Of a stretch of DNA of 64,000 nt, positions 13,501-61,127 are shown one piece after another. Numbering within the stretch: position 1 is the first letter of the stretch; every line of letters begins with the position of its first letter. The notes under the pieces are model-generated. The model did not search any database and was not told the origin of the DNA. It saw nothing but the letters and a program-made list of their open reading frames with translations. A program made the position numbers and the translations under genes. The DNA is taken from the NCBI GenBank assembly GCA_030704615.1, contig CM060731.1, forward strand, positions 82,708,001 through 82,772,000, written 5' to 3'. This DNA comes from Takakia lepidozioides. Its lineage: Eukaryota; Plantae; Bryophyta.

Positions 13501-13531
13501 GTATGTCTCATATGGGTGTTATTAAAAAAAC

Positions 13532-13562
<31 letters not shown>

Positions 13563-36065: not shown

Positions 36066-37059
36066 TTTGAATGAACAAAAGTAGGGTTGGGGTGCTTGCT
36101 GGAACAATCTAGGCTGTCATTGTCAACTGCTAGCAACAAGGCAATAGTGAACTCGTTTCCTCATCTGCACACAAGAATCACACAGTTGTTTATGTCAAAC
36201 ATTGGCTAGAGGCATGGATAGCTGAAGAGCAGGGATAGAGGGTGGGTCCAGATTCATCTAAGAGGGCTGGATCTCAAGCTCCAGATTACCTATGATTACC
36301 TATGGAAGGATAGGTACAAGAAACAGATGGTCAACTGGAAGCCGCAGCAGCAGCGGCACAATTGATAAAATCAAACATTGCTAATGAAGGCACCTTCTTC
36401 AACACATTTCATCCTGTTTTTCCCTCTTATCAGAATCGGCCCTAAATTTTCATGTTGAATTTTGCAAGTTAGCTGGTTGAGTGAACCTTTGATAGTTTGG
36501 AGTGACTGACATGATACTGCCAATGTGACAACAGGAAGTATCCAGAAATAGGTAACAGAGACGAGCCAACAGGCATTCATTTTTTTGCCTCGATTGTCCT
36601 ACCATTAACTGGGGTCAGAAAAGTATTCATTCCACAACTGAGTAGCAGATGCAATTGAGCATAGGAACTAATGTGATAAGTAGGGGGGTGTTTGCTGGAA
36701 CAATTCTAGGCTGTCATTGTCAGCTGCTAGCAGCAATGCAAAGATGTATGCATGATTTGTGCATGGATAGCTGAAGGAGCGGGGATAGAGTGTGGGTCCA
36801 GATTCATCCAAGAGGGTCGGACTTCAAGCTCCAGATTACGTATGTTTCCCTGTGGATCAATAGCTACAATAAACCTGCATGGGTAGATGGTCAACTAAAG
36901 GCAGCAGCTGCAGTGGCACAGTTGATAAAATCAGGCACCTCAACCATGATCACAGCTTATGAAAGAGGATCACGAGAGGGAGTCCACAATGCCTCTTCAG
37001 GCACTTCTAGGCATATGAAGATGCTTTATGTAGCAGGCAGATTGTCAGTGGCTCTTTAG

Positions 37060-38050
37060 ACTTTAAACCAAGGAGGCATTTCAGTAGATTTAGATAATGT
37101 CTGTCTCTTGCTTAAGTGCACCAAGATGGAAGGTCTGGAAGCTGGAAAGCAGGTGCACACTCACATTATCCAAAGTGGATTCACGTCAAATGTTTTTATA
37201 CTCAACACCCTTGTCGACATGTATGTTAAGTGTGGGAGCATCATGGATGCTCACCAAGTGTTCAACATAATGCCTCACGATCTTTGATCACGTGGAATAT
37301 AATGTTGGCAGGATTTACCAAGCATGGGTGTGGTAGGAATGCTTTGGAGACCTATGAGCAAATGTTGCGCGAAGGGGTGAAGCCCCACCACATCACAGTT
37401 GTTTGTGTTTGCAATGCGTGTGCAAGCCTGGGAACTCTGGAAAAGGGGAAAGAGGTCCATGGTGACATCATCAAAGCTGGAATTGTACCAGATGTCATTC
37501 TGAACACTGCCCTAGTGGACATGTATGCCAAATGTGGGTGCATTGAGGATGCGAAGGGAGTTTTCAACACTATGGCAACGAGATGTGGTGTCATGGAACG
37601 TGATGCTTGCAGGGTATGTACAGCAGGGATGTGGTATGGAGGCTTTGGAGACCTATGATCAAATGATGGGGGAAGGGGGGAAGCCCGACCACATCATGTT
37701 TGTGTGCATTTGTAATGCGTGTGCAAGCCACAGTCATTTGTGTTCTCAATGTTGGTGCCAACATGGTGGCCCTGGAGAAGGGCAAAGATATCCATGCTGA
37801 CATTATCAAAGTTGGAATTTCGTCATATATTAATTGGGAGACTGCCCTTGTTAACATGTATGCCAAATTTGGGAGTGTAAGGGAGGCCTATCTAGTGTTC
37901 AATAGTATGGCTGAGCGCCGTCTTTCTTGACCATTTGTGTGGGGCCATTCTTGCAGCCCTGGAAAAGGGTTAGGAGGTCCATGCTGCCATCATCAAAGCT
38001 GGAATTGAGCAAGAGACTACCCTTGTGGACATGTATGCCAAATGTGGGAT
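37060..38050 (+). pseudogene. PLS-class PPR gene fragment, frameshifted
   Basis: GKQVHTHII, NTLVDMYVKCGS, TWNIMLAGF, GKEVHGDII..NTALVDMYAKCGCIEDAKGVF, RDVVSWNVML. Confidence 0.88.
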
Positions 38051-38799
38051 AGATCCTTTCACGAATTCATGCTACATGTATTTGTGACGAGAAGCAGGGG
38101 GTTGCCCCTCTAGATATAAACCCAATTCAGAATAGTGTTGCCTTCCTGGAGGCCTAGTGTGCTGGTGTAGGAAACAAGCAAAATAGGATGGAAGCATACC
38201 AGGTGCTCCTGCCAAAGCTGCCAAGTTTGCAGAAAGGTTTGTGTCTTTTCTCTCTTTTCATGATGCAAGTGATGATTTGTTCTTCCGATTGGTTACTTGC
38301 CATGTTTGGAGGGTTCAGAAGTTAGTGACTTGTTCTCTACCTATAGAAATAAGAAGAGCAACAATCCTGGGATAGGAGCATGTGGGTGTCATGTAAAAGT
38401 TGTCTCTAATTCACTCCAAAATTGTCTGTTGTGGTTTTTGTGCTTGTAGACATGGAGCAATAATGAAGGACATACAGGCCAATCCTCAGAGCCATGGTGG
38501 CTAGTCCCCTGACCACAACGTAAGTGCTGCAACGGTTCTCTTTTCCGTCCTTTTCTCAAATGTCCATCTTCTATCATCATAAAAATTGCCTGGACTTGCC
38601 AGGTTACTGAAGCTTCCGTTCATTACATCTTATGAGTACATTCTCGATCCCTCTCTTGTATCTTACTTCACATTGTCTAGGGTATTCTCACCAGTGACCC
38701 TCTTAGCTTCTCGTCATCTCTGTTATCTGTTTCTGGATACTTTCCTGCTGCCACATCGGCAGTTACTTGTCAAAGTCATTCCAAACCACCACAGATCCA

Positions 38800-39850
38800 C
38801 CCAACGAGCTAACTTACAGAATTCAATATGCATCTCAGGGCCAAATCTGATGAGAGGGCAAAACAGGCTGAAATAGGTCGAAGAAGAAGGTGCCCTCACC
38901 ACATTGTCCTTGACCTTGTGGCATGACCCATGGAGGATTTGACCAACCATCAACCCGAAAGGATCTCATGTGTGTGCTGCTTGTGTTTGTAGTCAGGTAA
39001 TGTCGGATTGGTCTGTGAGAACCACCACGGTGCAGCTCAGCAGGCAGAGATTGTCGGAGGGCAAAAGGCTGAAATAGGTCGAAGAAGAAGGTGCCCTCAC
39101 CACATTGTCCTTGACCTTGTAGCATGACCCATGGAGGATTGACCGACCATCAACCCAAAAGGACCTCTTCACACGTCATTTGCTCATAGGTCTCTAGAGC
39201 CTCCATCCCGCACCCTTGCGGTGCATATTCTGCAATCATATGGAGGATTTGACCAACCATCAACCCAAAAGGACCTCTTCTGTGTGTTGCTTGTGTTTGT
39301 AGTCAGGTAATGTCGGATTGGTCTGTGAGAACCACCACGATGCAGCTCAGTAGGCAGAGATTGTCGGAGGGCAAAACAGGCTGAAATAGGTTGAAGAAGA
39401 AGGTGCCCTCACCACATTGTCCTTGACCTTGTAGCATGACCCATGGAGGATTGACCGACCATCAACCCAAAAGGACCTCTTCGCACGTCATTTGCTCATA
39501 GGTCTCTAGAGCCTCCATCCCGCACCCTTACGCTGCATATCCTGCAATTATATGGAGGATTTGACCAACCATCAGCCCAAAAGGACATCTTATGTGTGTT
39601 GCTTGTGTCTGTAGTCAGGTAATGTCGGATTGGTCTGTGAGAACCACCACGGTGCAGCTCAGCAGGCAGAGATTGTCGGAGGGCAAAACAGGTTGAAATA
39701 GGTCGAAGAAGAAGGTGCCCTCACCACATTGTCCTTGACCTTGTAGCATGACCCATGGAGGATTGACCGACCATCAATCCAAAAGGACCTCTTCGTACGT
39801 CATTTGCTTTGGAGACCCGCACCTTTGCGGTGCATATCCTACAATCATCG
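38800..39850. repeat. Tandem array of about 200-310 bp composite units (unknown exon-like piece plus PPR piece); a further unit at about 40630-40885
   Basis: GAAATAGGTCGAAGAAGAAGGTGCCCTCACCACATTGTCCTTGACCTTGT recurs near 38870, 39070, 39380, 39695 and 40700. Confidence 0.85.
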
Positions 39851-39869
39851 CACTCCACGACACCACATC

Positions 39870-40360
39870 TCATTCAACCATACTGTCCAACACTCATTTG
39901 CATCCTTGATGCACCCACATTTGATATACATGTCCACCAGGGCAGTCTTCAGAATGACATCAGGTATGTCAACCATAGTGTTGAAAACTCCCTTCGCATC
40001 CTTAACGCACCCACATTTGGCATACATGTCCACCAGGGCAGTCTTCAGAATGACATCTGGTACAATTTCAGCTTCGACGATGTCACCATGGACCTCTTCC
40101 CCCTTTTCCAGAGCTCCCAGGCTTGCACACGCATTGTAAACACAAACCAAGGTGATGTGGTTGCGCTTCACCCCTTCGCGCATCATTTGCTCATAGGTCT
40201 CCAAAGCATTCCTACCACGCCCATGCTTGGTAAGTCCGAATCCACTTTGGATAATGTGAGTGTGCACCTGCTTTCCAACTTCCAGACCTTCCATCTTGAT
40301 GCACTTAAACAAGAGACAGACATACGTATCTGAATCTGCTGAAATGCCTCCTTGGTTTAA
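39870..40360 (-). pseudogene. Inverted second copy of the PPR fragment
   Basis: ORF 39845-40312: EVGKQVHTHIIQSGF..GRNALETYEQM..KTALVDMYAKCGCVKDAKGVF, paralogous to 37060-37575. Confidence 0.88.
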
Positions 40361-40922
40361 AGTCTGTATAGCCTCTATCAGTCTGTCTGCCGCACAAAGC
40401 TACCCATGCAGGTTTCTTGTAGCTATTGATCCACAGGGAATCATAGGTAATCTTGTGCTTGAAATCTGGCCCTCTTGGATGAATCTGGACCCACACTCCA
40501 TCCCTGCTCCTTCAGCTATCCCTGCCTATGTACAAATCATGAATACATCATCAGCCTTGCTACTAGCAGCTGACACTAATGGCGTGAAGTTCTTCCAGCA
40601 AACACCCCAGCCCTACTTATTACAGTAGCACCCAACGATCTAACTTACATAATTCAATATGCATCTCAGGGCCAAGTCTGATGAGAGGGGAAAAACAGGC
40701 TGAATGAGGTCGAAGAAGAAGGAGCCCTCACCACATTGTCCTTGACCTTGTGGCGTGACCCATGGAGGATTTGAACGACCATCAACCCAAAAGGACCTCT
40801 TGTGTGTGCTGCTTGTGTCTGTAGTCAGGTAATGACGGATTGGTCTGTGAGAACCACCACGGTGCAGCTAAGCAGGCAGAGATTGAAACACGGCCTCGCA
40901 CATCTCTCCCGGTTTTCTTTTC

Positions 40923-41292: not shown

Positions 41293-43024
41293 GTCAACGG
41301 TTGCACCCCTACTGGCCGGGGTGAAAGATATGTCACGATATATCACTGTGAAGGGAACTAGAGATCACCGTCATCATCTCTTTGTTGTAATTTCACGTAG
41401 CAGAGAATTTCCCTCAAAAGAGTCGTGGAGCAAGCAGATTAACCTTTCTTTAACCCTCACTGGCTGAACCCTGTGTCATGAACTGAGGCGAAGAATACAG
41501 GATCCCGCGATTTTGTGAAAGCTGTATAAAACTAGAAATCTACAGTAAGAAAAAAAACGAATACACGTAGGTAAGAAGTCTTCACACACGCTGAACTCGC
41601 ACCAGAAGTCGACTACTTTCTCCAAAAGAACGCAGATCAACCGAGACGAATTTTTCTTTTATGCACAAGGGAGAGCAAAATGTACAGACAACATACATAA
41701 CAAGATTCTAAATCTGATCATACTAAGCTTCATAAGCACTCCATGGTTCGACCTTGCAAGCAGATCGGTCATCAGACGTAGAGAAAGTAAGAGGAACTCC
41801 ACTTCTCGTTAATGATCTTGGTTCTACGACATTAATATCTAAGACACCAAGACAACCGTCAACCATATCATACACTGTACATACACTACACACAGACAGA
41901 CAGGCGGCAAAAGAATTCAATCTTGCCATTACAACTTTCCAACTAAAACAACACGTCAACTTCAAAAATTAATATCTAAGGATCTTAGGCTCCAATTCTA
42001 CTGATTTTAGGTTCTATTGGGATTATTAGCTTTATTCTATGCTATCAACAAGAACTAGCATAGAAATCTTCCAAGAAACATATTCTAGAGCAGGTCAATT
42101 TTGTCTAAAAGAAATGAGAACCCTTTCCTACATGAAAAATGACAGTCCTCACATCTGCAATTGTTGTGCCAGTGTAAGAAAAACTGATTTCAAAAATTAA
42201 TTGCGGAAGATCCAAGGCTCTGATTTCACTAATTTCAGGTTGTATTGGGAGAATTATCATTATTCTTTGCTATCAAAAAGAAATAGTATGGAAATAGGTC
42301 AAGGGAACCCCACTAGAGCAGATCTATTTTGCCAACAAATGAGCAGAATCCTAAAGCTAAGGACTTGAGAAGCAACACAAGAATTGGACGTCCTACCAGC
42401 CCTTGTCTAGATTATTACACTTGACACCCCCAGAGGGTTGATCAGATCAAGTCATCACTTCACTCACGAAGCGGAAAGAACTATATACGATTGCAAATCT
42501 GGAACAAAATAGTTGTAACTTCGAGTCCATCGCTCACTACTACTGATTCTCTCTCCATCTTTGTGCTCTCCAACTCTAACGGCTGCCCTCTACTGTGCTC
42601 TCTACATCATGCTCGTCGCTCACTGGTAATCTCTCGATTGATACTACTGATACTGGCATTTCCCACTCCTCCAAGCCTCCTTTTATGTTTCTTTTGGGCC
42701 AATAGGAAAACTATGAATTAATCATTACATTTAATGGAAAACTTGTTAGCCAAGCAACCCTAGAAACTTCTGATTTCATCCATTCTGCTAGAGTTTCATC
42801 CATCCTACAATTTCATCCAGCTTGCGTTCTCTCATCCATTCGCTGATTTCATCCATTCTCATTCTTCCTTGTACTTTTCATTCATCCAGGGACATGACCA
42901 ACTTAAAGTTTGGTACATGACCAATCCGTTTTTAAGTCCTCATGAATGTTGCTCCTCATTCATGTTATTCATCCGTTTGGGAAATGGGATCGCTACCCTT
43001 GATCAGCCAATCATCCAATGGTCC

Positions 43025-43444
43025 TGTCATGGTTTTAGTCATGGTTATCTAGAATTACCTACTTCTAGTTAACTAGGACATTTTAGATATTTATATTTAT
43101 ATTTTGTGTGTTGGGACTTCATTTGGTCTCACATGCCAAGTGAAGTGTCGAGCCTCACTTGAGACATGGAGATAGGTTTTCCCCTTGTGAGTGTTGAGGA
43201 GGCTCATCTTCTTGTAGTTGAGCCTTCGTGAGCTTCTCTCACCTCCATAGCTCTAGGTATTGAGAGGGAGTGTGTTGAGGGCTTTGTAGGGTGAATTCCT
43301 TTAGCAAAGGTGCCCTTGGCTTGACTTAGTTTATGTGATAGAGTGGATTTCACTTGGAAGGACTAGGGCTTGTTCTTCATGTGATTGCTTCATGCTTTGA
43401 GAGCTTTCATTGTCTTCTACTTCTCTCATTTCTCATCTCTTATC
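43025..43444 (+). repeat. Terminal repeat A1 (420 bp)
   Basis: Direct repeat of 52465-52884 with about six mismatches counted by eye. Confidence 0.95.
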
Positions 43445-44940
43445 ACTACAAGAAGATCACCTTATGCTTGTGAGTGCGGAGTGTAAGGATTAGTTTTGTA
43501 CTTGTATTTTAAAGAGGTTGAGAGCTAGGAGAATTTAGCTCTTGTATCACAAGGCTTGCAAGGGGTTGCAAGGAAAGGTGCTCGAGTATTGCATGCACCA
43601 AGGAGTTGGAGAGCTTGAGAAGAAAGCTCTTGAGTCACAAGATTTTGCAAGGATTGTCAGGAGGAAGTCTTGTGTGTGTGAAAGCATGGATTCTAGGGTT
43701 TGAGAATCCTTTGTATGCATTATGGAGTCGATGGTGTGCGCCATGGCTTGTGGAGAGTGACTAAAGGTTTGTTAGTGCTCATTTCACTCTCAAACTAGGG
43801 TTAAGCAAGTTCAAAGTGTGGATGTTGTGGAAGAGAAGCCAAGGAGCTATATATGCTTGGGCTTGAAGACAACAAGGGCAAGCACTTGGAGAGCACTAAG
43901 AAGCTCAAGAGGTTTTGAAAGGGAGCATGTGAAAAATCATGGTGGTGTGGGGGCAAGCTTAGGGTGCCATTGGAAGGGCTTGGAGAACATGTGGTGGGAA
44001 ATCCTTGAAGGGAAATCATCATTCAATGTATGCATAGCTTCACCCTAACTATGTAATGTGACAAGATGGGGAGGCAATACTTGGCTATTCATGCTCTTGG
44101 TAGTGCGAGCTTTGTGGTGGATAGTTGACCAAGCAAGTGGTGCATGTGTGGAGCATGCTCGCTTGAGTTTGTAAGTTCAAGTTTGAGAATGGGAGCTCTT
44201 GAACTAGCAAGAGGTGAAGGCCTTTGAGATCCATTTGTGTGTGAAGTGGAGAGGTGTTGATTCATGTTATGATGAAGGAGAGCAACACATAGGCCAAGAG
44301 GTCATGAAACATGCATTCAAATGACCACGGGGAGCACATGGATGATGGATTGGTGCAAGACCCCAAATGAGGCATATGGCGTGAGAGTGAGATCCAAGGC
44401 GGATTGCTTGGGAGCATTATTGTAAGTGACAAGCATTGCTCCTACACATTGAGATAATTTGTGTTGATTTGGAGCAATTGTCAAGTGATGAGGAGACAAA
44501 TGCATGATTGCTCGGCAATGGAGATATGGTAGTTTGCAATCAAATCCCAAGGACTAGAAGGAGGATTGATTTGGTGGACAATGACTTGCAAGTTGAGTTG
44601 GACCACTCTTGGTTGCACATTGGGGTGGAAGAGAGCAAGAAGATGCCTCTTATGACCACCTAGAGACCATATTTTTGCTTGAGTAGAAGCATAGAAGTCA
44701 AGGACTTACATTCTAGCTCTTCATTACAAACCCTAGTAGTGTATGCTCAGACTATACCTCTGTTAGTATACCAAACAGGAGCTTGTCCCTTTGACTATAC
44801 CTTTGTTGAGGTATCACCATATGTGAACCCTAATGTGAGACTATACCTCTGTTAGTAGGTTCTTTACCCGGTTACCTTGTAGAAAGTGGGGATTAGAGAC
44901 AGGTTGACAACCGGTTGGGTTGTGAGTTTTCATCACGGAG

Positions 44941-46300
44941 GTGCCACCAGCTGCTGAGGGGAGTGCCGGTACGAGCACCAGCAATACTAGTGGGTACACA
45001 AGACAAGGTGTGCGGTTTAGGCCACTTTCACCTTCAGTGTCTTCTGAGGAAGGTTCAGACTCGGAGTCAGGAGGATTCTCGCCGAGGGTGCAAGTCATTT
45101 CTATGCCATTGTTGTGGGACACAATGGAGAAGATGTATGGAGCTACCAAGGGGCCACGTAGGTACTCTGGAGCTGTGGGCACCATCGAGCTTGATGACTT
45201 TATACAAGAGTTTGACAGTTGGTGTGATTTGCAGCAAATGCGCAATCCACAACTGTTTACGCCCTTTATGGCATGGAAGGGGCTATTCCAGCACCTTGAG
45301 GGGCCGCCCATGGATGATTACCATGAATTTAGGCGGGGACATGCAGTGGAGATTGAAGAGTGGCGAGAGTATTGGTCACCTAACTATGTCTCAATCACTA
45401 GAGGCACAAGGGCAGCGGTGACACCAGCAGCTACACAAACATCTCCAACTACAAGCACTAGTAGTGGAACAAGTAGTGCCGGCACTTCTGCAGGTGGTAC
45501 CAGTTCAAAAGGTGCTACTACTCCTCCTGCCACAATTACAACACATGTGCCTAGATCCAACCCGGTGGTGGAGTTCTTCCAGGAGTTGCGGAGGAACTAC
45601 CAAGGTGTACGGACAGAGAAGCTGCGAAGTTTGCAAGACTTCCAGCGCAAATCCAGTGAGAGCTTGCGAGAGGCCTACAGTCGTATGAGGCGCTTGATAA
45701 GTGTGACCCAAGGGGTTACTGAAGCTCAGGCAGTCCAGTTCTGGTATGGAATTTTGGACAAGGAGCTAAGAGAAGGGTGCGGGATGCAACCCTGTTACAA
45801 GCGGCCCAACCCACATTAGCGGATGTGTTTCTGCTGGCTTAGCGGATTGAGCTCAACATGGTGGAGGAGCGAGTTGTTACCATTGGATTTGGCAAGGACA
45901 TGCCTGCACGAGGTGCAGCTACCAGCCAACAGGTACAAGGGACTGCCCAACAGCGTGGTCAGGGGCAAGGTTGCCCAACCCAAGTTCCATGGAGCTTACA
46001 GGGGACCTCAGGTGCAGAGGCCCGTGGCATCTTTTGCAGGCCAACAGCAACCAGGGGTGATATGTTGGACATGTGGAGGACCCCATGTCAAGAGAGATTG
46101 CCCAGAGAGTGGCAGAAGGTCGGCACAAGCACAACCTGCACAGTTGCAGTGTGGGCATTGTGGCAAGTATGGGCATGGAGATGCCCAGTGTTATGACTTG
46201 CACCCTGAGTTGCAGCAGGCCAAGGGCAAGCTCAACATGGCCAAGGACGCGGAGGTCAGGGTGTTGACCAAGACATGGCCAACCGGCTTCAGCAGCTAGA
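44941..46300 (+). pseudogene. Retrotransposon gag with two zinc knuckles (frameshifted)
   Basis: ELDDFIQEFDSW, QRKSSESLREAYSRMRRL, CWTCGGPHVKRDC, CGHCGKYGHGDAQC. Confidence 0.85.
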
Positions 46301-46969
46301 GCACAGGCTCGCTGCCATGGCTACAGCTCAGGTGGTACCGGCTCCCAGGCGGGATGGTCCACCTCCTGCTCCTGAGGGAGGAGATATGGGAGGCATGGGA
46401 TTCATGTGCGGAGCAGCACTACCACTAGTGCAGGTGGAGTCTGCTGCAGCCGTGACTCGAGGAGCAGCACGAGTTCCTGAGCCACGAGGTGCAGAGGTGG
46501 AATTGGATCCACAGCGTAGGGAGGCAAGCCGTCAGGCGAGGCTTCCTCAGTCATTCACATTGGCAGAGACAATGTCGACGCCATCCATGGCACCTAGTTC
46601 TCGCCCGACTGTTACCGAGGCGGAGGTTACTATGCCATTGGGGAGAGCTACACGTGCAGCACTTACACCTGCTACCAAGGCTAGTGCAGCCGGTGTGTTA
46701 TTGGGGGCAGCCACCTCTGTGTATCAAGCCCCACTGTTCTCGGCAACCATGATTGCGACGCCGGGGGTAAGACCAGCTGCAATGTTCAGACTAGCAGCAA
46801 CACTCTGCGAGAGTGGGGAGGTAACTTCATCTTCTATGGAGTTACTGGAAGGTGTAGTGGCAGAGGGATCCTCGGATTTGAGGGTCAAGACTGCCACGGC
46901 TGCGCCATGGCAAGCTGCAGCTGCCAGGTTGACGGAGCTGCCAGCTAGGCCAGCCTTTGAGCGCGCCAT

Positions 46970-47420
46970 GGTGACACCTGGAGTTGTCTTGTTAGACAAC
47001 CAGGGAGGCATTTTCACTTTGAGTGGACCGGCAGGCAAGAAGTACCGGCCACTGCGGGTCTTGTTGGATTCAGGAGCTCAGCCACTGATGTTGGGCAGAG
47101 CTGCTATTGCAGGTTTGGGCCTCATGGAGGCGGATATGGAGCCTTATCATTTCCAGATACAGACATCTCTGGGAGGATCAGAGTAGGCTCAGGGCATGAC
47201 ACGGCGTGAGTTGGCCATTGGACTACAACCAGATCATCCTATAGATGGCTCAGTGATGCGAGCCAAGGCCATTGTGATAGATGCGGCCTCTTACGATGTC
47301 CTTGTTGGTGGGGCAGTGTTATATCCCATGGGCTTCACCCTGGACTTTTGGGAGGAGTCAGCATCCTACAGGCCTGGATGGCAGTCAGGGGATGGTCGTT
47401 GTGCACAGCTCCCTGTGACA
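46970..47420 (+). pseudogene. Retropepsin (aspartic protease) region of pol
   Basis: VLLDSGAQ catalytic motif and SYDVLVGG..L downstream. Confidence 0.8.
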
Positions 47421-47781
47421 TTCATTGGGGGTATTGCGGCTGCCCAGCGGGGCAAGATGCCAACACTAGCCGCCTTTACAGCTGCAGTTAGTGGCCTGGA
47501 GAGTTGCTGGAAGGCAATGCCCATGCAGAGGATGTGCCACCTCCAGCAGAGTAGGATGATATGCATGGTACGGCGGAGTTGCCTGCCATGGTTGCTCACA
47601 CTCCATTATGGGGTACGAGCAAGGATTTGCAGCAGGCTGCTGATGGACGGGTACAACAAGCCTGGGTAGAGGCCTTCGTACCGTCAGGAGAAGAGGAGAG
47701 TGCGATGATTGCACCAGGACCACCTCAGTTGTCGTCACTAGACACCACACCTCTTGTGTGGCAGTGCCCGGATGAAGGCAT

Positions 47782-48720
47782 ATGCTTCTGGACTTGTTTG
47801 GCGGGATCAGCACTGGATTGGCTGCAGTACTGCAGGCATGTGTACGAGTTTGACGTTACCTGTATGTGGAGAGGGATGAGACTGCACGACGCGTCTCAAT
47901 GCGCCATGTTGCTACCCTGATTTGTTGCCAGTGTCTACAGTTCGTGGATACCAACAAGCCTTGCCAGCAGACATTTCGTTGCCGGGGGCGCATGATTTGG
48001 AGCAGGTTGGCTTCATTGATCTGGTAGTGGCAGGTTGGCCCTGCCAAGGGCATTCATCAGCCGGGCGTGGCAATGGATTGCGAGACTTGAGGACGGGTCT
48101 GTTTTGGGAGATGGTGCGGATTTTGCGCCACTTGCAGCTTCATCAAGCTGTATCTCCAGCATACATCTTGGAGAATGTGCCACTGATGGGTGATTTTTGG
48201 GCCAGGGTGATGGCCAGTGTGCATCAAGTCCGGTCGTGGCTTGGGTCAGCAGTGTTGCTGGATGCAGCTGCAGTGGGGTCATGGGCTCATCGTCCACGGC
48301 TATGGTGGACTAACTTGATGCCACCCGCATTGCTCAAGCGTGCATTTGATGGGGTGCAGCGGCCAGCACACCTCACAGTGGATAGCATTTTGGACACAGG
48401 GAGGCAGTCTCAACGTGTGAGACATGATGACCGTTCGCCTTTGGCAGTGGTCAATAGGGTGGGTCAACCACGAGCAGCATTACCTACACTGCTCAGCTTC
48501 CCAGGATCCCATGCTTTTCGGGATGGTGGACCTGGCCTCTTGTGGGATAGCCAGTTGCAACAATTAGTGGAGCCCAATGCTGACGAGCGCGAGCAGGCGA
48601 TGGATTTTACCACAGGTACCACGGCGGTGCCATCTCTTTCTAAGGCATCACGTCGTCAGGTGTTGGGGCAAGCAATGGATCTCAATTGCTTGACCTGGAT
48701 TATCAGCTTGGCTATGGCTG
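47782..48720 (+). pseudogene. DNA (cytosine-5) methyltransferase domain embedded in pol
   Basis: Motif I LDLFGGISTG and II YVERD (read from sequence at 47782-47880, one TGA), IV IDLVVAGWPCQGHS, VI YILENV, VIII HRPRLWWTN, IX EREQAMDF, X RRQVLGQAM, in canonical order. Confidence 0.92.
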
Positions 48721-49216
48721 AGCAGCGCAGAGTACGGAGTACACTTCCCTTCATGGTCTCCCTGCCTATCGAGACGGTACAAGCAGCGAATGGGGGCGAG
48801 CAGGTGAGGACCACGAGGTGCAGGCTGCATCCATGGCACACGTGGGAGGTGCTCGAGGTTCAGAAGGAGTTGGCAGCCAAGGCGGCGGTGATGGATCAGG
48901 TTGGGGATTTTTCTCGGATTGAGGAGGTCCTCAAGCATGGGATGATGGGACAAAATGAGACATTGTCACTGACAGAGGAGGCAGTGGTCACTGCTCAAGA
49001 GGTTGCAGCATAGCAACCACGGGACGCGTCTTCTACCTCTAAGCCTGTTGGACTCAAGGTTGCAGTCACGGAGGACAACTGGGAGCCTGATGTTGGACCT
49101 ATAGTCACCGGAGGAGAGAGACGACGTATACGGCGGTTCATGAGGGCTTACAAGAACTGCTTTGCCTTCAGTTTGAGGACTTAGGAGCACTGAAGGGTCA
49201 AGAGATTCGCATTGAA

Positions 49217-50582
49217 TTGGCTACTGACACGCCAATCTTTCGGAGACCCTATAGATACAGTGACATGGAGAGGTCCTTGATTCAGATGAGAACTCAGGAC
49301 CTTTGGGAGGCTGGTTTGGTGGAGCTATCTGGGGGAGAGTATGCTTCAGCCACAGTGATGCCATCCAAGAAGGATGTCTATGGCAATTGGACGGAGAGAC
49401 GTATGTGCGGTGATTACCGACCTGTAAATCGTCAGACCAAGTTCGATAGGTATGCTATGCCAACACCAGAGGAGATCTTTGATGCCATTGGGCATGCCAA
49501 GGTCTTTAGCACTTTGGATTTACGATCCGAATATCACCAGTTGCCGATCAAGGAGGCGGATAAGCAGAAGACGACATTCTGGGGGATCAATGAGCACGGG
49601 AAGGATTGCCTATACCAGTGGCGGTTCTTACCATTTGGGCTTAAAAACGCTCCTGCAGAGTTTCAAAGAGTCATGGACAGGATTCTAGCAGGGGTGGAGT
49701 TTGCTCGGTGCTACATAGATGACATCATCATCTTTAGTGCTACGGTGGAGGAGCATGAGAGATACCTTCAGGGGGTATTTGAGCGCTTGAGGGCGCACGG
49801 ATTGAAGTTACATCCGGGAAAGTGCAAGTTTTTCCACAACCAGATTGAGTATCTGGGTCACATGATATATCCTGGAGGATTGGGGGTACAACAGACTAAG
49901 GTAGAGTCCATTGCACAGATTCCACGCCCCACGGATGTGAGCTGGGTTCGAGCTTTCATGGGGTTAGCAAATTATTATAGACGGTTTGTTAAGGGATTTA
50001 GTGTCATTGCAAAGGCTCTAACCAAACTAACCAAGGTGGACCAGGAGTGGCAGTGGGAAGACGAGCAAGAACAAGCTTTTCAAGAGCTCAAGGCAAGGTT
50101 GACCTCGGCGCCCATCTTGAGACGACCAATCAGGGGGGCGTCTTTTTCAGTTGCATACAGATTGGAGCATGCTGGGGCTTGGAGCGGTGCTCACACAGGT
50201 GGATGATGAGGGAAGAGAGTTCGTAGTGGCTTATGCTAGCCGCTCGAACAACGCTGCAGAGTCTAAGTATAGCTCATATGAGGGAGAATGCTTAGTTGCA
50301 GTGTGGGCCGTGGCACACTTCAGGTGCTATCTATACGGCAATCTCTTCACCCTTGTCACGGATCACCAACCACTCAAGTGGTTGATGGAGTCAGACAAGC
50401 TTACGGGGAAGCTTGCACGGTGGGCACTCATCCTTCAAGAGTATGACTTTCAGGTGGTGCATCGACCGGGTTTGGTCAATCGCAATGCAGATAGGTTGAG
50501 TCGCAATCCATGCACGAGCCAGCAGGATGACACTGGAGCTCGGTGGCATGGTGAGACGGACAAGGAGATGGTGCCCAGATGA
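49217..50582 (+). pseudogene. Ty3/Gypsy reverse transcriptase and RNase H
   Basis: RMCGDYRPVN, FSTLDL, LPFGLKNAPAEFQ, YIDD; HTDWS..GLGAVLTQ, YSSYEGECL, TDHQPL, NADRLSR. Confidence 0.95.
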
Positions 50583-50809
50583 CATGCATCTGCATTTCTG
50601 TGTATCTTGGCAGCGGAAGGCCAGGTTGGACCTGCAACAGGGATGACTGTAGATCAAGTGTCTGAGGACCCTGAGGCCAACAATGAGCAAGGTGGCGCCA
50701 AAGATATACATGAGGATTCAGTTGTGTTGGACTACCTCCGCACTGGAGACACTACAGCCACTGTGACTGCCCCAAGAGGTTCAAGTGGGAGGGGACACAC
50801 CTGCTCCGA

Positions 50810-51950
50810 GTGTGGGAGGATGGTCGAGTGAGGATTGTGCCTCACCCAACACAGCGGGCACGGTTAGTGCGGCATGCCCATGAGGAGTTGGGGCATTTTG
50901 GGGTGCGACGCACTCATAGTCTACTGCAGGGGCAGTATTGGTGGCGTGGTATGCACACAGAGGTGCAACAATTTGTGGCTAGGTGCATGGTGTGTGACAG
51001 GGTGCGTGCTTCATTCAACGCCCCTACTCCACAATTGCACCTCTTCCGATCATGGGATTGGGCTACAGGTGGAGTCTTGACTTCGCAGGGCCGTTGCCAC
51101 TGACCATGCGCCACAACAAGTACGTGTTGGTGATGGTGGAGCACTTCTCCAAGTGGATTGAATTGGTTCCATTGCCCGATAAGGCTAGTGAGGGAGCTGC
51201 GTATGCATTCTTGGATTGTGTGCTTAGCCAATTCGGTGCTCCAGCTGAGGTACTCATGGACCAAGGGAGAGAGTTCTTGGGGGAGTTTCAGGCTTTGTGT
51301 GACAAGGCCTTGATAGACCACCGCACCACTTCTCGGGATCATCCTGAGGCCGATGGCTTGGCAGAGAGAGTTGTTCAGACAGTAAAGAGGGGTTTGCGCA
51401 AGTATGGCTTGCAGAAGGGACACCTAGGAGATTGGGACCTTCAGTTACCCTGGTTAGCCATGGGCTACAGGTTCAGCAAGCAAGCATCACTTGCCTCCTT
51501 CTCACCATATTTTCTTCTCTTTGGCCGAGAGCCGGATTTGCCTACATCCATTCGCAGAGAAGCTGCTACAGTTCTTAACCTTGACGATCCGGACATGTGG
51601 GCACGTGCATGTGAGTAGCGTGCAGAGTTGTTCAAGAAAGTCATGCCCATGGCTTTCGAGAACCTTGCCATTGCACAACATCGTGATACGTTGAGGTATG
51701 CTACCATACGTGGTGGGGGCTATCGTCTTGGGGTTCGGAGATTCAACCCTGGTGACTATGTTTATCTGCAGCAGACTGCTCCTACGACCTTGGATGTGAC
51801 TGTAGGACGTACTATTTTGAAGGTTCGAGAGGTGTTGCCCTCAGGAGTCCTGATCTTGGAGGGTCAGGATAGCATGATTTGGAAGGACCATGTGCGTAAT
51901 TGCGTGCCATGTCACCTTCCAAATGTTGATGGAAGGGTTGACCCAAACCT
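50810..51950 (+). pseudogene. DDE integrase
   Basis: HHCC (HEELGH..CMVC), WSLDFAG, DQGREF, GLAERVVQT, SPYFLLFG. Confidence 0.93.
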
Positions 51951-51975
51951 AGCAGCGGTACTTACAAGTTTGAGG

Positions 51976-52119
51976 TGCATGTTGTGTGGGTTTGCTAGAG
52001 AGGCAGCCACCATGCTGGTGTGTGATCAATGCTCTAGAGGTTGGCATATGGGATGCTTGACTCCACCTCTTGAGATGGTTCCTGATGGGGATTGGTTATG
52101 TCCGCATTGCATTGGATAG
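51976..52119 (+). other. PHD finger at the pol C-terminus
   Basis: CMLC..MLVCDQCSRGWHMGCLTPPLEMVPDGDWLCPHC is a C4HC3 pattern. Confidence 0.92.
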
Positions 52120-52377
52120 TGGGAGTGGATACAACCATGGAAGGCTAACAAGAAATGCAAGGCCAAGCTACTAGGACACCAACACACGAGATCCTGACTC
52201 AAGTTCACAGATTGCAAGACGGCAACTAACGATGGGGTTGCTCTTGTACCCGGCCTCTTGGTCTATAGAATTTGAGTACAATAGGGACAGTGATAGAGGA
52301 CTTAGTACGGCTGTGGCTATTACATCTTGTAGCTATCTGGAGTTAGAGGGACCTAACCACCAGCTAGGGGGGGCGAT

Positions 52378-52462
52378 TGTGGTATAGCTTTCTAGGATTG
52401 TGTGCTTAGATTGTGTGGTGGACAGCAATGTATGTTGTGGCACGATGCTTAGGTGCACGACA
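52378..52462 (+). repeat. Repeat B1 (85 bp, TG..CA), preceded by polypurine tract AGGGGGGGCGAT
   Basis: Identical to 52888-52972 except one base. Confidence 0.95.
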
Positions 52463-52464
52463 GC

Positions 52465-52972
52465 TGTCATGGTTTTAGTCATGGTTATCTAGAATTACCT
52501 ACTTCTAGTTAACTATGACATTTTAGATATTTATATTTATATTTTGTGTGTTAGGACTTCATTTGGTCTCACATGCCAAGTGAGGTGTCGAGCCTCACTT
52601 GAGACATGGAGATAGGTTTTCCCCTTGTGAGTGTTGAGGAGGCTCATCTTCTTGTAGTTGAGCCTCCATGAGCTTCTCTCACCTCCATAGCTCTAGGTAT
52701 TGAGAGGGAGTGTGTTGAGGGCTTTGTAGGGTGGATTCCTTTAGCAAAGGTGCCCTTGGCTTGACTTAGTTTATGTGATAGAGTGGATTTCACTTGGAAG
52801 GACTAGGGCTTGTTCTTCATGTGATTGCTTCATGCTTTGAGAGCTTTCATTGTCTTCTACTTCTCTCATTTCTCATCTCTTATCTATTGTGGTATAGCTT
52901 TCTAGGATTGTGTGCTTAGATTGTGTGGTGGACAGCGATGTATGTTGTGGCACGATGCTTAGGTGCACGACA
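52465..52972 (+). repeat. Repeats A2 (52465-52884) and B2 (52888-52972), together an LTR-like unit TGTC...GACA
   Basis: Direct sequence comparison with A1 and B1. Confidence 0.95.
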
Positions 52973-52976
52973 GTCC

Positions 52977-56307: not shown

Positions 56308-59300
56308 TGTCATGGTTTTAGTCATGGTTAACTAGAACTACCTACTTCTAGTTAACTATGACATTTTTGGATGTTTATATTTGTATTTTGTGTGTTGGGA
56401 CTTCATTTGGTCTCACATGCCAAGCGAGGTGTCAAACCTCACTTGGGACATGGGGATGGGTTTTCCCCTTATGAGTGTTGAGGAGGGTTCATCTTTTTGT
56501 AGTTGAGCCTCCATGAGCCTCTCCCACCTCCATAGCTCTAGGTATTGAGAGGGAGTGTGGTGAGGGCTTTGTAGGGTGGATTCCTTTAGCAAAGGTGCCC
56601 TTGGCTTGACTTAGTTTATGTGATTGAGTAGATTCATGAGTGGAGTGTTTCCATTGTGTGTTCACTTCCACCTCCATACATGAAGCCCATACCAATCTGG
56701 TCTTCCCTAGGCATAGGAGGTTGTGCAGGTGGGGCTTGAACCTCAAGCCTTGGAACATGAGTAGTGGCCATGGCAGCAAGATATTGCTCTAGCTGGGCAA
56801 GTCTATTCACCATGCCTTGGTCATGACCTTGACCCTGACCCTGTGCTCCTTGGTTTTGGTTACGTCATCCACCACGACCTCTGCCTCCTCTACCTCTCTA
56901 GACTACATTGCCTCGTCCTTGGCCACCATTGTTCCCTTGGAATTGGCCTGGCCGTAGCTCATGATGCAAGTCATAACAATGGGCCTCCTCATGCCCATAT
57001 TTGCCACAATGCCCATACTGTAGTTGTGTAGGCTGTGCCTGTGCCGACCCTTTGCCTCTCTCCGGACAATCTCTCTTAACATGGGGTCCTCCACAATCCC
57101 AACATGTCACACCCGACTGTTGTTGGCCTGAGAATGAAGGAAGTGACCTCTGAAATTGAGATCATTTCTGTCCTTCCCTGGGCTTCGCTTGCGCCCCCTT
57201 GTTGCCTTGAGCACGTTGGGGTAGTGGTTGTTGTTGGCTAGGAGCCCCACTTCGTTGTGTCTCCTTACCAAATCCCACCATGACCACTCGCTCCTCCACC
57301 ATATTGAGCTCTATCCGCTCTGCCAACAAAAACACGTTTGCTAAGGTGGGTTGGTCCACTTGTAGGAGAGTTGCATCCCGCACCCTTCTCCTCAGCTCCT
57401 TGTCCAATATCCCATACCAGAATTGGACTGCTTGAGCTTCCGTAACCCCTTGGGTTACATTTATCAATCGCCTCATGCGAGTGTAAGCCTCCCTCAAACT
57501 CTCGGCAGGCTTTCATTGGAACTCTTGCAAACTCCGCAATTTTTCCGTCCTTATCCCCTGGTATTTTCTCCTTAACTCCTCGAAGAACTCCACAACTGGG
57601 TTAAAGGCAGGCACGGGTGTTGGTGCTGCAGCAGAAGCTTGGGTGGACTTCCCAGCTCCTGTTCCACTTGACATCCCACTGCTGCTTGCAGAAGCTGCCG
57701 GTGTAGCTACCGGTGTCACCACTGCCTTTGTGCCTCTAGTGATGGAGACATAGTCAGGTGACCAATACACTCGTCATTCCTCAATCTCCACCTCATGTAC
57801 CCGCCTAAACTCATGGTAGTCATCCATGGGCGGACCCTCAAGGTGCTGAAACAGCCCCTTCCATGCCATAAAGGGCGTAAACAGTTGTGGATTGCGCATT
57901 TGCTGCAAATCACACCAACTGTCAAACTCTTGTATGAAGCATCAAGCTCGATGGTGCCCACAGCTCTAGAGTACCTACGTGACCCTTTGGTAGCTCCATA
58001 CATTTCCTCCATCGTATCCCACAACAATGGCATGGAAATGGTTTGCACCCTCGGCGAGAATCCTCCTAACTCTGAGTCTAAACCTTCTTCAGAAGACATT
58101 GAAGGTGAAGGTGGCCTAAACCGCACACCTCGTCTTGTATACCCACTAGTATCGCTGGTGCTCGTACCGGCACTCTCCTCAGCAACTGGTGGCACCTCCG
58201 TGATGAAAACTCACAACCACACTTGTTGTAAACCTGTCTCTGAACCCCCTTTCCACAAGGTAACCGAGTAGAGAACCTGTTGCAGCTTATGGCTTAGACT
58301 ACTAGATTCGTAACATAAACCTGCACCTGCATCCACTGCAAGCACTCATATGGTCTGCTGGTCATCAACCCAGCCTCACCATAAGAGAAACAATGATGGT
58401 CTGACTGGTCATCACCCCAGCCTCACCACCGACAACATGCTCTAGGATTGGCCGGTGATCAAATCCGGACCAACCTCCTATGAAAACAAGCGCCCACACA
58501 AAACTGACATGGCGCACAGTCAAGCATGCAGGTGTGGGGGGGGGTCCAAATACAAGAAAATCAAGACAGTAACTCCCCCACACCAAAAAAAACACTCCAC
58601 AGTGTCGCTCCTGCAAGGACACCCCAGCCCAAACCCGAACTGACTCTTGCCTCCACCTACGGAAAGGTTTTGGCCTACATAGAGGGTGGAAGACTACGGG
58701 GAAGAGAGACTAAAGCAATTCCTAATCCCAGAATGCTCTCATCCCACTAGTCTCCCCCTATCTCCAATCGCTCTTGCTCATGACCAACAGACATAACTAC
58801 CTTCCAGGGTCTCTCAAATAACTCTCCAAGAGCCCTCAAGATGTCTCTCAAACAATCTCACTAAGGCCCCCAAAGCCTGCCAAATCTTGGTCCTCAAGGA
58901 CCCCAAAAAGTCCTTCAGACAAGTTGCCAAAGACTCTTTAAGCTTGCCAAATATTAGCCTCCAAGGACCCCAAAATAGTCCTCCAAATAGCCCTCCAAAG
59001 CTCCAAATGTTTGCCAAATATTGGTATTCAAGGACTCTCAATAGTCCTCCAAACAGTCCTCCAAACACCCTTTTCAAGAAGTGTCTTACAAAAACTCCTC
59101 AAAGGACCCCCCAAAGATCCTCCAAAGGCAATACTCCTCCAGGTACACCCTAGATGTCATACACTTTTAATGAAAACTTATGGTAGGCAAAGTCTCTCCA
59201 CTTGTATCCATACACTGTTCACAAAAGTGTATGGTGGGGCAGATGGAGCCCATACACTGTTTACAAAAACGTATGTAGGGCAGAGGGGGCCATACTTTGT

Positions 59301-61125
59301 TCACAAAAGTGTATGTTGGGCAGAGGGTTCCATACACTGTTCACAAAAGTGTATGATGGGCAGAGGGAGCCCATACACAGTTTCTTGAAGAGTATGGAGA
59401 CTAGGGTTTGTAGAGTATAGTAAGAAACACCTTCTTCATGGTATCTTCCCCCCTAACATGCATGCAAGATTGCATTATTTTACTTTGCAATGCTATTCAT
59501 CCCAAATTGACAAGTTCCTCTTGATCTCCTTGGAACTCATAGCAAGCTAATGTGCCCAATGACAAGTGCCAAGCCTTGCTTGAATTTGAATTTTGTATGC
59601 CATCTTCCATGTGCTTTCCCTTGCATGGGCTAGTCACACACACTTCCACCCCTTGAGCTAGGTGTTCTCTTCATTCATCATAATGTGTATCCAACCTCTA
59701 TTCAAGAGCTGATCTTCTCAAACTTGAAGTCACAAGCCCTAAAGAGCATGCTCCACATAAGCATCACTTGCTTGATCAACCATCCACCACAAAACTTAAG
59801 CAAAAAGGGAATGAATACATGAGCTTCACCTTCCCCTTCCTTGTCTTGTCACATGCTAATGTATGGTTGAAGTTGCTATGCATGCCGTGAGCCACAATCT
59901 CCTTTCTTCATGAAGACCACCTCCAATGATCTCCCACATGTGCTCCAAGCTCTTCAATACTCTAGGCTTGGTTTCACATCATCATGGATAGAATTCTCAC
60001 CTACATTCTTCCCTTTGGAGTCATCTTGAGCTTCTTGATGCTCTCCAAGTGGTTGCTTTTGTTGTCTTCAAGCCCTAGCCTATGTAGCTCCTTGGTTGTT
60101 CTTCCACAACATGCATCACCTCATACACAAGGAATGAACTTGCTCACTTCACCTTCTAGCTCTCCTCAAGCTTGAATTGGAAGCCACACTTGGAAAGCAT
60201 GCCCCACACATGCGCCACTTGCTTGGTCAACCACTTGCTTCACCAAGAGCAATCCAAGAACTCATAGAACTAGCAAAAACACTCCCTTCTAGCGCCGCCT
60301 TTGCTTGCTTGTTTGTCAACCAAATAAAACCCCACTTGGCTTCATTTCACCATGGATAGAACAACCACTTCTTAGCTTCTCTTGAGCTACTCAATGCTCC
60401 TCAAGCTACCATTGTTGTACTCATTCTATTCCAACCCAAGCATGTGCCGCTCTTTGGCTTCTCTTTCACACCATGAACAACTAGAGCTTGCTCTTGAAAC
60501 CCTAGTGTCTATCTTCTCCACACACAAGACGCTTCTCTTGTGATACAAGAGCTCTTTTCCAAGCTCTCCACCTCTATAGAGCAAAGTAATGCTTCTCAAA
60601 CCCTAACATCCATGTTCTCCACGCCACAAGGATTTTCCTTTGCAACTCCTGCAACACCTTGCAACACAAGAGCTCTTTACCAAGCTCTCTCCAACACACA
60701 AGTGCTAAACTAACCATTACACTCCGCACTCACAAGCATAAGGAGATCTTCTTGTAGTGATAATGGAAGTGAACACACAATGGAAACACTCCACTCATGA
60801 ATCCACTCAATCACATAAACTAAGTCAAGCCAAGGGCACCTTTGCTAAAGGAATCCACCCTACAAAGCCCTCACCACACTCCCTCTCAATACCTAGAGCT
60901 ATGGAGGTGGGAGAGGCTCATGGAGGCTCAACTACAAGAAGATGAGCCCTTCTCAACACTCACAAGGGGAAAATCCATCCCCATGTCCCAAGTGAGGTTT
61001 GACACCTCACTTGGCATGTGAGACCAAATGAAGTCCCAACACACAAAATACAAATATAAATATCCAAAATGTCCTAGTTAACTAGAAGTAGGTAATTCTA
61101 GTTAACCATGACTAAAACCATGACA
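56308..61125 (-). mobile_element. Deleted relative of the 43025 element: A repeat (61125-60760), long leader, gag fragment (58195-56690), then an inverted A repeat (56308-56670)
   Basis: Begins TGTCATGGTTTTAG and ends CTAAAACCATGACA; the minus-strand gag peptides closely match 44941-46400. Confidence 0.9.
59208..59397. repeat. About 40-bp tandem repeat x5, each unit palindromic
   Basis: CATACACT-GTTCACAAA-AGTGTATG followed by (A/T)GGGCAGAGGG. Confidence 0.85.
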
Positions 61126-61127
61126 GT

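Follow-up and report, generated by a model that had tools for sequence, protein, structure and literature searches.

Does a retrotransposon of a land plant encode its own DNA methyltransferase, how would such an enzyme be produced, and what would it methylate? These questions are raised by a locus in a 64-kb stretch of DNA from Takakia lepidozioides (the whole stretch analysed here, referred to as the window), where the original prediction had placed a C5 DNA methyltransferase (DNMT) between the protease and the reverse transcriptase (RT) of a retrotransposon. Indeed, the domain is preceded by the protease motif (47061-47078) and followed by the YIDD motif of the RT (49712-49723). It is carried by a 9.9-kb Ty3/Gypsy-type element that spans 43025-52972 on the + strand and is flanked by GTCC on both sides. 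The order is repeat A, leader, Gag, two zinc knuckles, protease, DNMT, RT, RNase H, integrase, PHD finger, polypurine tract and repeats B-A-B:

43021-43024, + strand: left target-site duplication GTCC, identical to the 4 bases at 52973-52976.
43025-43444, + strand: repeat A1, the left terminus, beginning TGTCATG; 6 differences from A2.
43445-45102, + strand: 5' leader, placed by the sequence at the end of A1.
45103-46200, + strand: Gag, the start of ORF1, broken in the window copy (Retrotrans_gag E 0.00098, below the cut-off).
About 46063-46191, + strand: two zinc knuckles in Gag, read by eye.
46990-47400, + strand: aspartic protease, with the motif LLDSGA.
47785-48740, + strand: DNMT3-like C5 methyltransferase domain by motifs, Pfam and predicted fold, the C-terminal part of ORF1.
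49011-49019, + strand: conserved ORF1 stop TAG followed by CAACCA (CAR-YYA), a predicted readthrough site.
49014-50444, + strand: ORF2 with RT and RNase H (Pfam RVT_1, RT_RNaseH).
50846-51345, + strand: integrase zinc-binding domain and DDE core (Integrase_H2C2 E 2.2e-17; rve E 2.6e-14).
51976-52119, + strand: PHD finger ending ORF2, then a stop (PHD E 5.1e-11).
52366-52376, + strand: polypurine tract before B1, identical in the related loci L031 and L005.
52377-52462, + strand: repeat B1, ending CACGACA, from repeat comparison; the B1-A2 junction also occurs in L031 and L005.
52465-52884, + strand: repeat A2, from repeat comparison.
52887-52972, + strand: repeat B2, the right end of the element (CACGACA), from repeat comparison.
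52973-52976, + strand: right target-site duplication GTCC, matching the left copy.

Gag of this element shares 67% identity with the N-terminus of Marchantia Mp4g09160. The protease is interrupted by a stop at 47184-47186 and gave no Pfam match; an intact relative (P0016) gave a weak match to Asp_protease_2. RT matched RVT_1 at 49400-49867 (E 1.4e-30) and RNase H matched RT_RNaseH at 50145-50444 (E 5.4e-35), with frame breaks of ORF2 near 49175 and 50140 in this copy. The Gag-protease-RT-RNase H-integrase order, the DDE integrase, the polypurine tract, the TG..CA ends and the short target duplication are those of Ty3/Gypsy elements. In place of two equal LTRs and a tRNA primer-binding site we found the split repeats A..B-A-B, and by eye no tRNA-type (TGG-type) primer site was seen after A1; the 64-kb window holds no tRNA gene. 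A tyrosine-recombinase element of the DIRS/Ngaro kind was ruled out by the rve integrase and the 4-bp duplication, and the tyrosine recombinase family had no match in the 11 ORFs scanned. The element thus reads as one that integrates like Gypsy but has non-canonical ends. The same repeat layout, with matching ends and its own 4-base duplication, was recovered in L031, the one locus of 22 checked in which the layout is complete, most contigs being too short. At the B1-A2 joint (52456-52471) the right end, GC and the left end form a short palindrome that is common to L031 and L005. This joint resembles an end-to-end junction retained internally and is a possible integrase substrate or replication template.

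Fairly recent activity had been proposed from the likeness of the A repeats. With 6 differences across the 420 positions of the A repeats and 1 across the 87 of the B repeats, the window insertion is young. Contigs of run X1 contain 18,814 pieces that match the 2 kb around the methyltransferase domain, which indicates a multi-copy family; X1 is possibly the window's own source and so not independent. A second, truncated relative lies on the - strand within 56308-61126 (repeat A 61126-60634, Gag 58278-56911, about 80% DNA identity), in which no methyltransferase part was seen, and it abuts a + strand A-repeat fragment (56308-56634). Elsewhere in the window, non-LTR RT-like ORFs in direct and inverted copies (e.g. 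13922-15805) occupy 10683-17577, inside what appears by eye to be a LysM receptor-kinase gene. Clustered PPR-repeat fragments, direct and inverted, occur at 36200-40900 (Pfam PPR for 39848-40399).

The C5 methyltransferase motifs were all located on the + strand, which is the pol strand, without introns and in the canonical order of these enzymes: I (LDLFGG, 47788-47805), II (VERD, 47866-47877), IV (GWPCQ with the catalytic Cys, 48033-48047), VI (ILENV, 48165-48179), VIII (RPRLWWTN, 48291-48314), IX (48585-48608) and X (GQAMD, 48666-48680). The HMM search that had been suggested as a check agreed, the open stretch 47880-49010 matching Pfam DNA_methylase (PF00145) with E 4.9e-11 and 43.1 bits against a cut-off of 22. 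The catalytic Cys is present in 225 of 229 full-length domains, the Glu of ENV in all and the two arginines of motif VIII in 225 and 228. Glu replaces Pro before the catalytic Cys in 80 of these domains, and Cys replaces Phe in motif I in 38. We regard it as probable that the methyltransferase is catalytically active.

A DNMT3-like affinity, suspected from motif VIII, was borne out by two approaches. By sequence, the best solved-structure matches were DNMT3A, 3C and 3B; in the profile comparison DNMT3A reached E 1.4e-21 vs 3.5e-7 for DRM2, and no bacterial enzyme appeared at 1e-6. A predicted model of the intact L002 domain (pLDDT 91.8) had DNMT3 as its best Foldseek match. VIA-align placed it closest to DNMT3B (Z 29.0, rmsd 2.8, 272 aligned) and DNMT3A (Z 27.6, rmsd 2.6, 260 aligned), followed by M.MpeI (Z 25.4), M.HhaI (22.9) and DNMT1 (19.5). 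The motif order is non-permuted, unlike DRM. The 50 rows of a wide fold search did not include DRM2. The domain is DNMT3-like as judged by its sequence and modelled fold; its sequence specificity is not readable because the target-recognition loop aligns poorly to DNMT3A.

The window copy had been described as broken by a stop and frameshifts, and this stands for the domain, whose frame has a stop near 47851 and is broken near 47784 and 47912. At these sites pieces from runs X1, X5 and X6 read differently from the window, and the methyltransferase breaks appear to be specific to this copy; some single-base breaks could be assembly errors. The description does not hold for the stop at 49011-49013, which is conserved and, as the comparison below indicates, is a family feature and not a lesion.

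Relatives of the methyltransferase domain were numerous, with 59 among longer proteins and 212 among shorter ones (120 listed). The idea that a retrotransposon lineage of land plants keeps a C5 methyltransferase was supported by relatives in Calypogeia fissa (72%), Marchantia polymorpha (71%), M. paleacea, Riccia sorocarpa and Sphagnum; Closterium and Monoraphidium were named as well. In M. polymorpha an 18-member protein cluster surrounds Mp4g09160. A profile search yielded 541 clusters, formed at 50% identity, that match with E values of at most 1e-30. Of 143 newly numbered proteins among the best 150 profile matches, the enzyme follows RT/RNase H or precedes integrase in 97, follows protease in 6 that lack RT and is fused to a following RT in 3, while 37 were too short to class; these proportions are biased because 4 bryophyte-type and 12 other sequences made up the profile. 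Named hosts among 20 profile relatives looked up were Closterium (5), Haematococcus, Scenedesmus and Cymbomonas. A sister group (L045-L056, P0040-P0054, P0255, P0385) carries the methyltransferase between RNase H and integrase (RH-DNMT-INT), in a single ORF with a PHD finger. Its named members are green algae (Scenedesmus, Haematococcus, Monoraphidium), and we found no published description of this arrangement. In sister-group relatives, one of them from Closterium, the DNMT is fused to RT. No fern, lycophyte, seed-plant, Physcomitrium or Klebsormidium name occurred among the 59 matches, the 120 listed of 212 and the 20 look-ups, which are mostly nameless and do not imply absence. On viral contigs 17 loci matched, every one weak and prokaryote-type. 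A host gene neighbouring the element has its closest match in Sphagnum (66%, 333 bits), the next named being a lycophyte (277), Physcomitrium (265) and Calypogeia (223); this single gene points to a moss as the likely host.

Quick trees of the methyltransferase (64 rows, prokaryote-type outgroups only) and of RT (34 rows), both without cellular DNMT3 or Klebsormidium sequences, grouped identical sets. In the RT tree the protease-DNMT-RT elements fall on one side of a branch (98), with the stop-bearing elements as a subset (99). A branch of the DNMT tree likewise has the RH-DNMT-INT elements on one side (90), and there the window groups with liverwort and Sphagnum sequences (99) in the same tree. 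Marchantia and Sphagnum-type elements are sisters on short branches (RT 98, DNMT 85), closer to each other than either is to the window's, and this closeness may reflect horizontal transfer among bryophytes or old paralogy.

How is the RT expressed if a stop precedes it? The original prediction had asked whether protease, methyltransferase and RT share one ORF. They do not: the methyltransferase ends the Gag-protease ORF, and a conserved stop separates it from RT. Of 80 metagenome loci found, L001-L066 were analysed, and 37 showed the bryophyte-type architecture with the junction before RT. In 36 of these 37 a stop occupies the site homologous to 49011 of the window (in L028 its position was set by hand); the exception, L024, is a broken copy with a sense codon there. 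The stop contexts were TAGCAACCC (n=20), TAACAACCC (n=9), TAGCAATCA (n=3) and, once each, TAGCAACCA, TAGCAACCT, TAGCAGTTA and TAGTAGCCA. Because 30 of the 36 stop-bearing loci belong to one Sphagnum-type subfamily with many near-copies, the loci represent only about six independent subfamilies. A 138-residue stretch of L005 is identical to a Sphagnum fallax protein. In four of the six subfamilies (the window, L002, L030 and the L034 group) we found UAG-CAR-YYA with the frame open on both sides, which is the sequence criterion of type I readthrough. The other two, Sphagnum-type and L028, match CAR-YYA at 5 of 6 positions; Sphagnum-type loci have CAACCC or CAACCT after the stop, and 9 have TAA. 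Across subfamilies the second codon after the stop alternates between CCA, TTA and TCA (Pro, Leu, Ser). On the + strand of the window only 2 of 797 TAG triplets have the CAR-YYA context, the conserved site included. No variants of 2% or more occurred at 49009-49020 in four host-type runs, and piece depth was highest there (597 pieces for X1). A contig of run X14, guessed to be RNA, crosses the stop unspliced, which has no bearing on expression.

Beyond the stop, L034 continues for 1047 codons without interruption and L002 for 766 or more, and RT, RNase H, integrase and PHD finger were confirmed in frame. A separate AUG for ORF2 was rejected, since none is conserved after the stop: the first Met stands at codon 3, 5, 5, 5, 14, 43 or 48, or is absent in 80. 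Among hand-picked ORF1 proteins 34 of 35 end 77-201 residues past motif X. Those of Marchantia and Calypogeia end 97-99 residues past it, like the Sphagnum-type ORF, their stop being deduced from protein ends alone without DNA context. We do not claim a conserved stimulatory RNA structure, as a folding signal 3' of the stop was seen in only one of five loci (z -3.0 in L034; -0.9 to +0.6 in the other four). No CAR-YYA stop directly before RT was found in 10 algal-type loci, of which 5 reach the contig end and 5 have distant stops that are otherwise flanked.

UAG-CAR-YYA is the tobamovirus readthrough consensus (PMC3542737, available part), and in a plant assay its readthrough product reached about 20% of the sense control (PMC2754532, available part). 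For Candida Tca2, the available text reports that the gag-pol stop flanks did not direct readthrough (PMC2194720). We conclude that the conserved UAG is probably read through to yield the RT-RNase H-integrase-PHD protein. Because most ribosomes would stop at the UAG, the methyltransferase would be made at capsid stoichiometry, above RT.

On balance we favour a model in which ORF1 encodes Gag, protease and DNMT, the conserved UAG is likely leaky, and the methyltransferase, present at capsid level, likely methylates the element's own new cDNA. Most ribosomes would halt after the methyltransferase and a minority would continue into RT-integrase, so that in each particle the enzyme and protease would match Gag in amount, with RT-integrase less abundant. 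The methyltransferase would be packaged into the particle, be released by the protease and act on double-stranded cDNA or a fresh insertion. That cDNA or a fresh insertion is indeed its substrate we consider slightly better than an even chance. New copies would then be delivered already marked like host heterochromatin, and the PHD finger may steer integration through histone marks. Self-methylation of cDNA seems the likeliest role of the enzyme.

More speculatively, and with the odds somewhat against the scenario as a whole, an ancient green-lineage clade may have kept a DNMT3-like enzyme from chlorophytes to mosses and liverworts. The enzyme would have moved from within the low-abundance Pol (RH-DNMT-INT) to before RT, and the clade would then have gained a leaky stop of viral type, giving hundreds of enzymes per particle. 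New copies would be pre-methylated behind a CG/CHG-free promoter, and Marchantia would harbour many de novo methyltransferases that have gone unrecognised and could alter its methylome upon transposon derepression. The repeats bear on the promoter part of this scenario: A1 contains 2 CG vs 17.5 expected and no CHG vs 13.2 expected, and in 43 background tiles the CHG observed/expected ratio never falls below 0.80. Depletion is weaker in the A repeat of L031 (CG 4 vs 13.2 expected, CHG 4 vs 9.2 expected). Such scarcity could be a record of host methylation of the repeats; that it would spare the promoter region is speculative.

Fusion to Gag co-locates a protein with retroelement cDNA, and here it puts the enzyme alongside the cDNA. 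This counts against the idea that the methyltransferase acts outside the particle, whether at the target site, in trans on the chromatin of the host, or by binding DNA non-catalytically together with the PHD finger. Such action is compatible with a particle role, and as the main explanation we consider it unlikely. It draws on the abundance in the cell that Gag-level production could bring, and on the proposal that PHD fingers of algal Gypsy elements act on chromatin (PMC9940879, available part). In addition, the coding region shows no self-methylation footprint: CpG observed/expected is 0.48 inside the element vs 0.44 in the first 42 kb of the window, and CpG depletion was rejected as such a mark. 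A purely non-catalytic role is opposed by the catalytic residues, which are kept in at least 98% of the 229 domains.

Readthrough itself has a competitor, in which RT-integrase is made from spliced or internally initiated RNA and the TAG may double as a splice acceptor. We judge this improbable. The sequence 5' of the TAG is T-rich in the Sphagnum-type context, though subfamilies other than this one lack the tract, and CAR-YYA is kept across Pro, Leu and Ser codons, which would be unexpected at an exon start. Public Marchantia and Sphagnum gene models (P0006, P0008, P0012, P0037) link DNMT to RT by predicted introns that apparently bypass the stop, but they do so at four different junctions, as expected if prediction skirts a stop. 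Spliced or internal-promoter routes have been proposed for other plant elements (PMC2829016, available part), and Tca2 has an internal promoter (PMC2194720). An excess of DNMT over RT could hold even with such RNAs.

Retention of the enzyme for the benefit of the host, e.g. against DNA viruses or by damping the spread of the element, is very improbable: a host benefit has been proposed for retrotransposon methylases (PMC6338049, available part) and damping in PMC5890265, but the methyltransferase stays within many dispersed mobile copies and is not a fixed host gene. The dN/dS test that had been suggested gave 0.09-0.28 for the domain in 15 between-subfamily pairs, with synonymous sites saturated in the other 10, ratios that are rough because dS is near saturation; the methyltransferase domain is under purifying selection between subfamilies, and a one-off capture or neutral evolution was not borne out. 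That the enzyme is passive cargo, a captured host gene in decay, is refuted by this between-subfamily selection and by the distribution (541 clusters, two different polyprotein positions) and has a negligible chance, even though the window copy is broken and dN/dS is 0.59-0.73 among three near-identical Sphagnum-type copies, whose RT at 0.35-0.57 bears the mark of post-insertion decay.

Our favoured reading, a methyltransferase made at capsid level ahead of a leaky stop, has consequences for work on bryophytes. Whether retrotransposon methyltransferases methylate their own cDNA has been asked since 2018, and the carriers known so far are difficult experimental systems. Because the family occurs in Marchantia polymorpha, for which methylomes and methyltransferase mutants exist, the question becomes testable in a model plant. 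A conserved leaky stop predicts the enzyme at capsid level with only a few percent of RT, and may explain how a methyltransferase-RT element escaped the gene models. Family ORFs have entered the Marchantia gene catalogue as hypothetical proteins, and bryophyte methyltransferase counts and mutant methylomes may include transposon-encoded enzymes.

Within the reach of our literature search, we found no earlier report of the family in land plants (Marchantia among them), of the conserved and likely leaky stop, or of the large algal sister group. No published description of these bryophyte elements or of the readthrough site was found, with subscription journals, theses and Repbase outside the coverage. 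A 2019 opinion paper states that land plants such as tracheophytes lack transposons that encode methylases (PMC6338049). Later papers from the de Mendoza group give the carriers as 'streptophytes' in the text available (PMC12344493; bioRxiv 2026.05.21.726589), and their supplements may include bryophyte sequences.

The closest known element is KnitGypsy-Dnmt3 of Klebsormidium nitens (de Mendoza et al. 2018, PMC5890265, available in part). The likeness is by description, no Klebsormidium sequence being among the matches listed. Both have the Gypsy domain set, an intronless DNMT3-related domain under purifying selection and DIRS-like repeats with flanking A1/A2 and two B around A2 (PMC5890265). 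KnitGypsy-Dnmt3 comes from one charophyte alga, whereas the present family occurs in mosses and liverworts, and its DNMT shares an ORF with RT and RNase H (peer-review file, PMC5890265), whereas a stop lies between them in the bryophyte family. Its authors call it an independent acquisition in the Klebsormidium lineage; it had no activity in yeast, a result they regard as inconclusive, and the species table in the available part of the paper has no liverwort or Sphagnum (PMC5890265). SymbioDIRS-Dnmt3 and SymbioLINE-Dnmt of Symbiodinium are likewise retroelement-borne C5 methyltransferases, the DIRS one being DNMT3-type and methylating CG de novo in yeast (PMC5890265). They belong to other retroelement classes and hosts, whereas the bryophyte element has a DDE integrase and a 4-bp duplication. 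Human DNMT3A and DNMT3B provide the best match to the bryophyte enzyme by sequence and fold of the catalytic domain, at about 21-25% identity and without a PWWP or ADD domain in the bryophyte enzyme. EpiLTR and DAM-LTR are likewise LTR elements with DNA methyltransferases and a chromatin reader; their DNMT is sister to DNMT4 and accompanied by DAM and a chromodomain, in contrast to the DNMT3-like enzyme and PHD finger of the bryophyte family (bioRxiv 10.64898/2026.05.21.726589, available part). As to the stop, tobamoviruses likewise have UAG followed by CAR-YYA (PMC3542737), and soybean SIRE1 relies on stop suppression to express its env-like ORF (PMC2829016). In contrast to both, the bryophyte stop sits after protease and methyltransferase and before RT, where readthrough is predicted.
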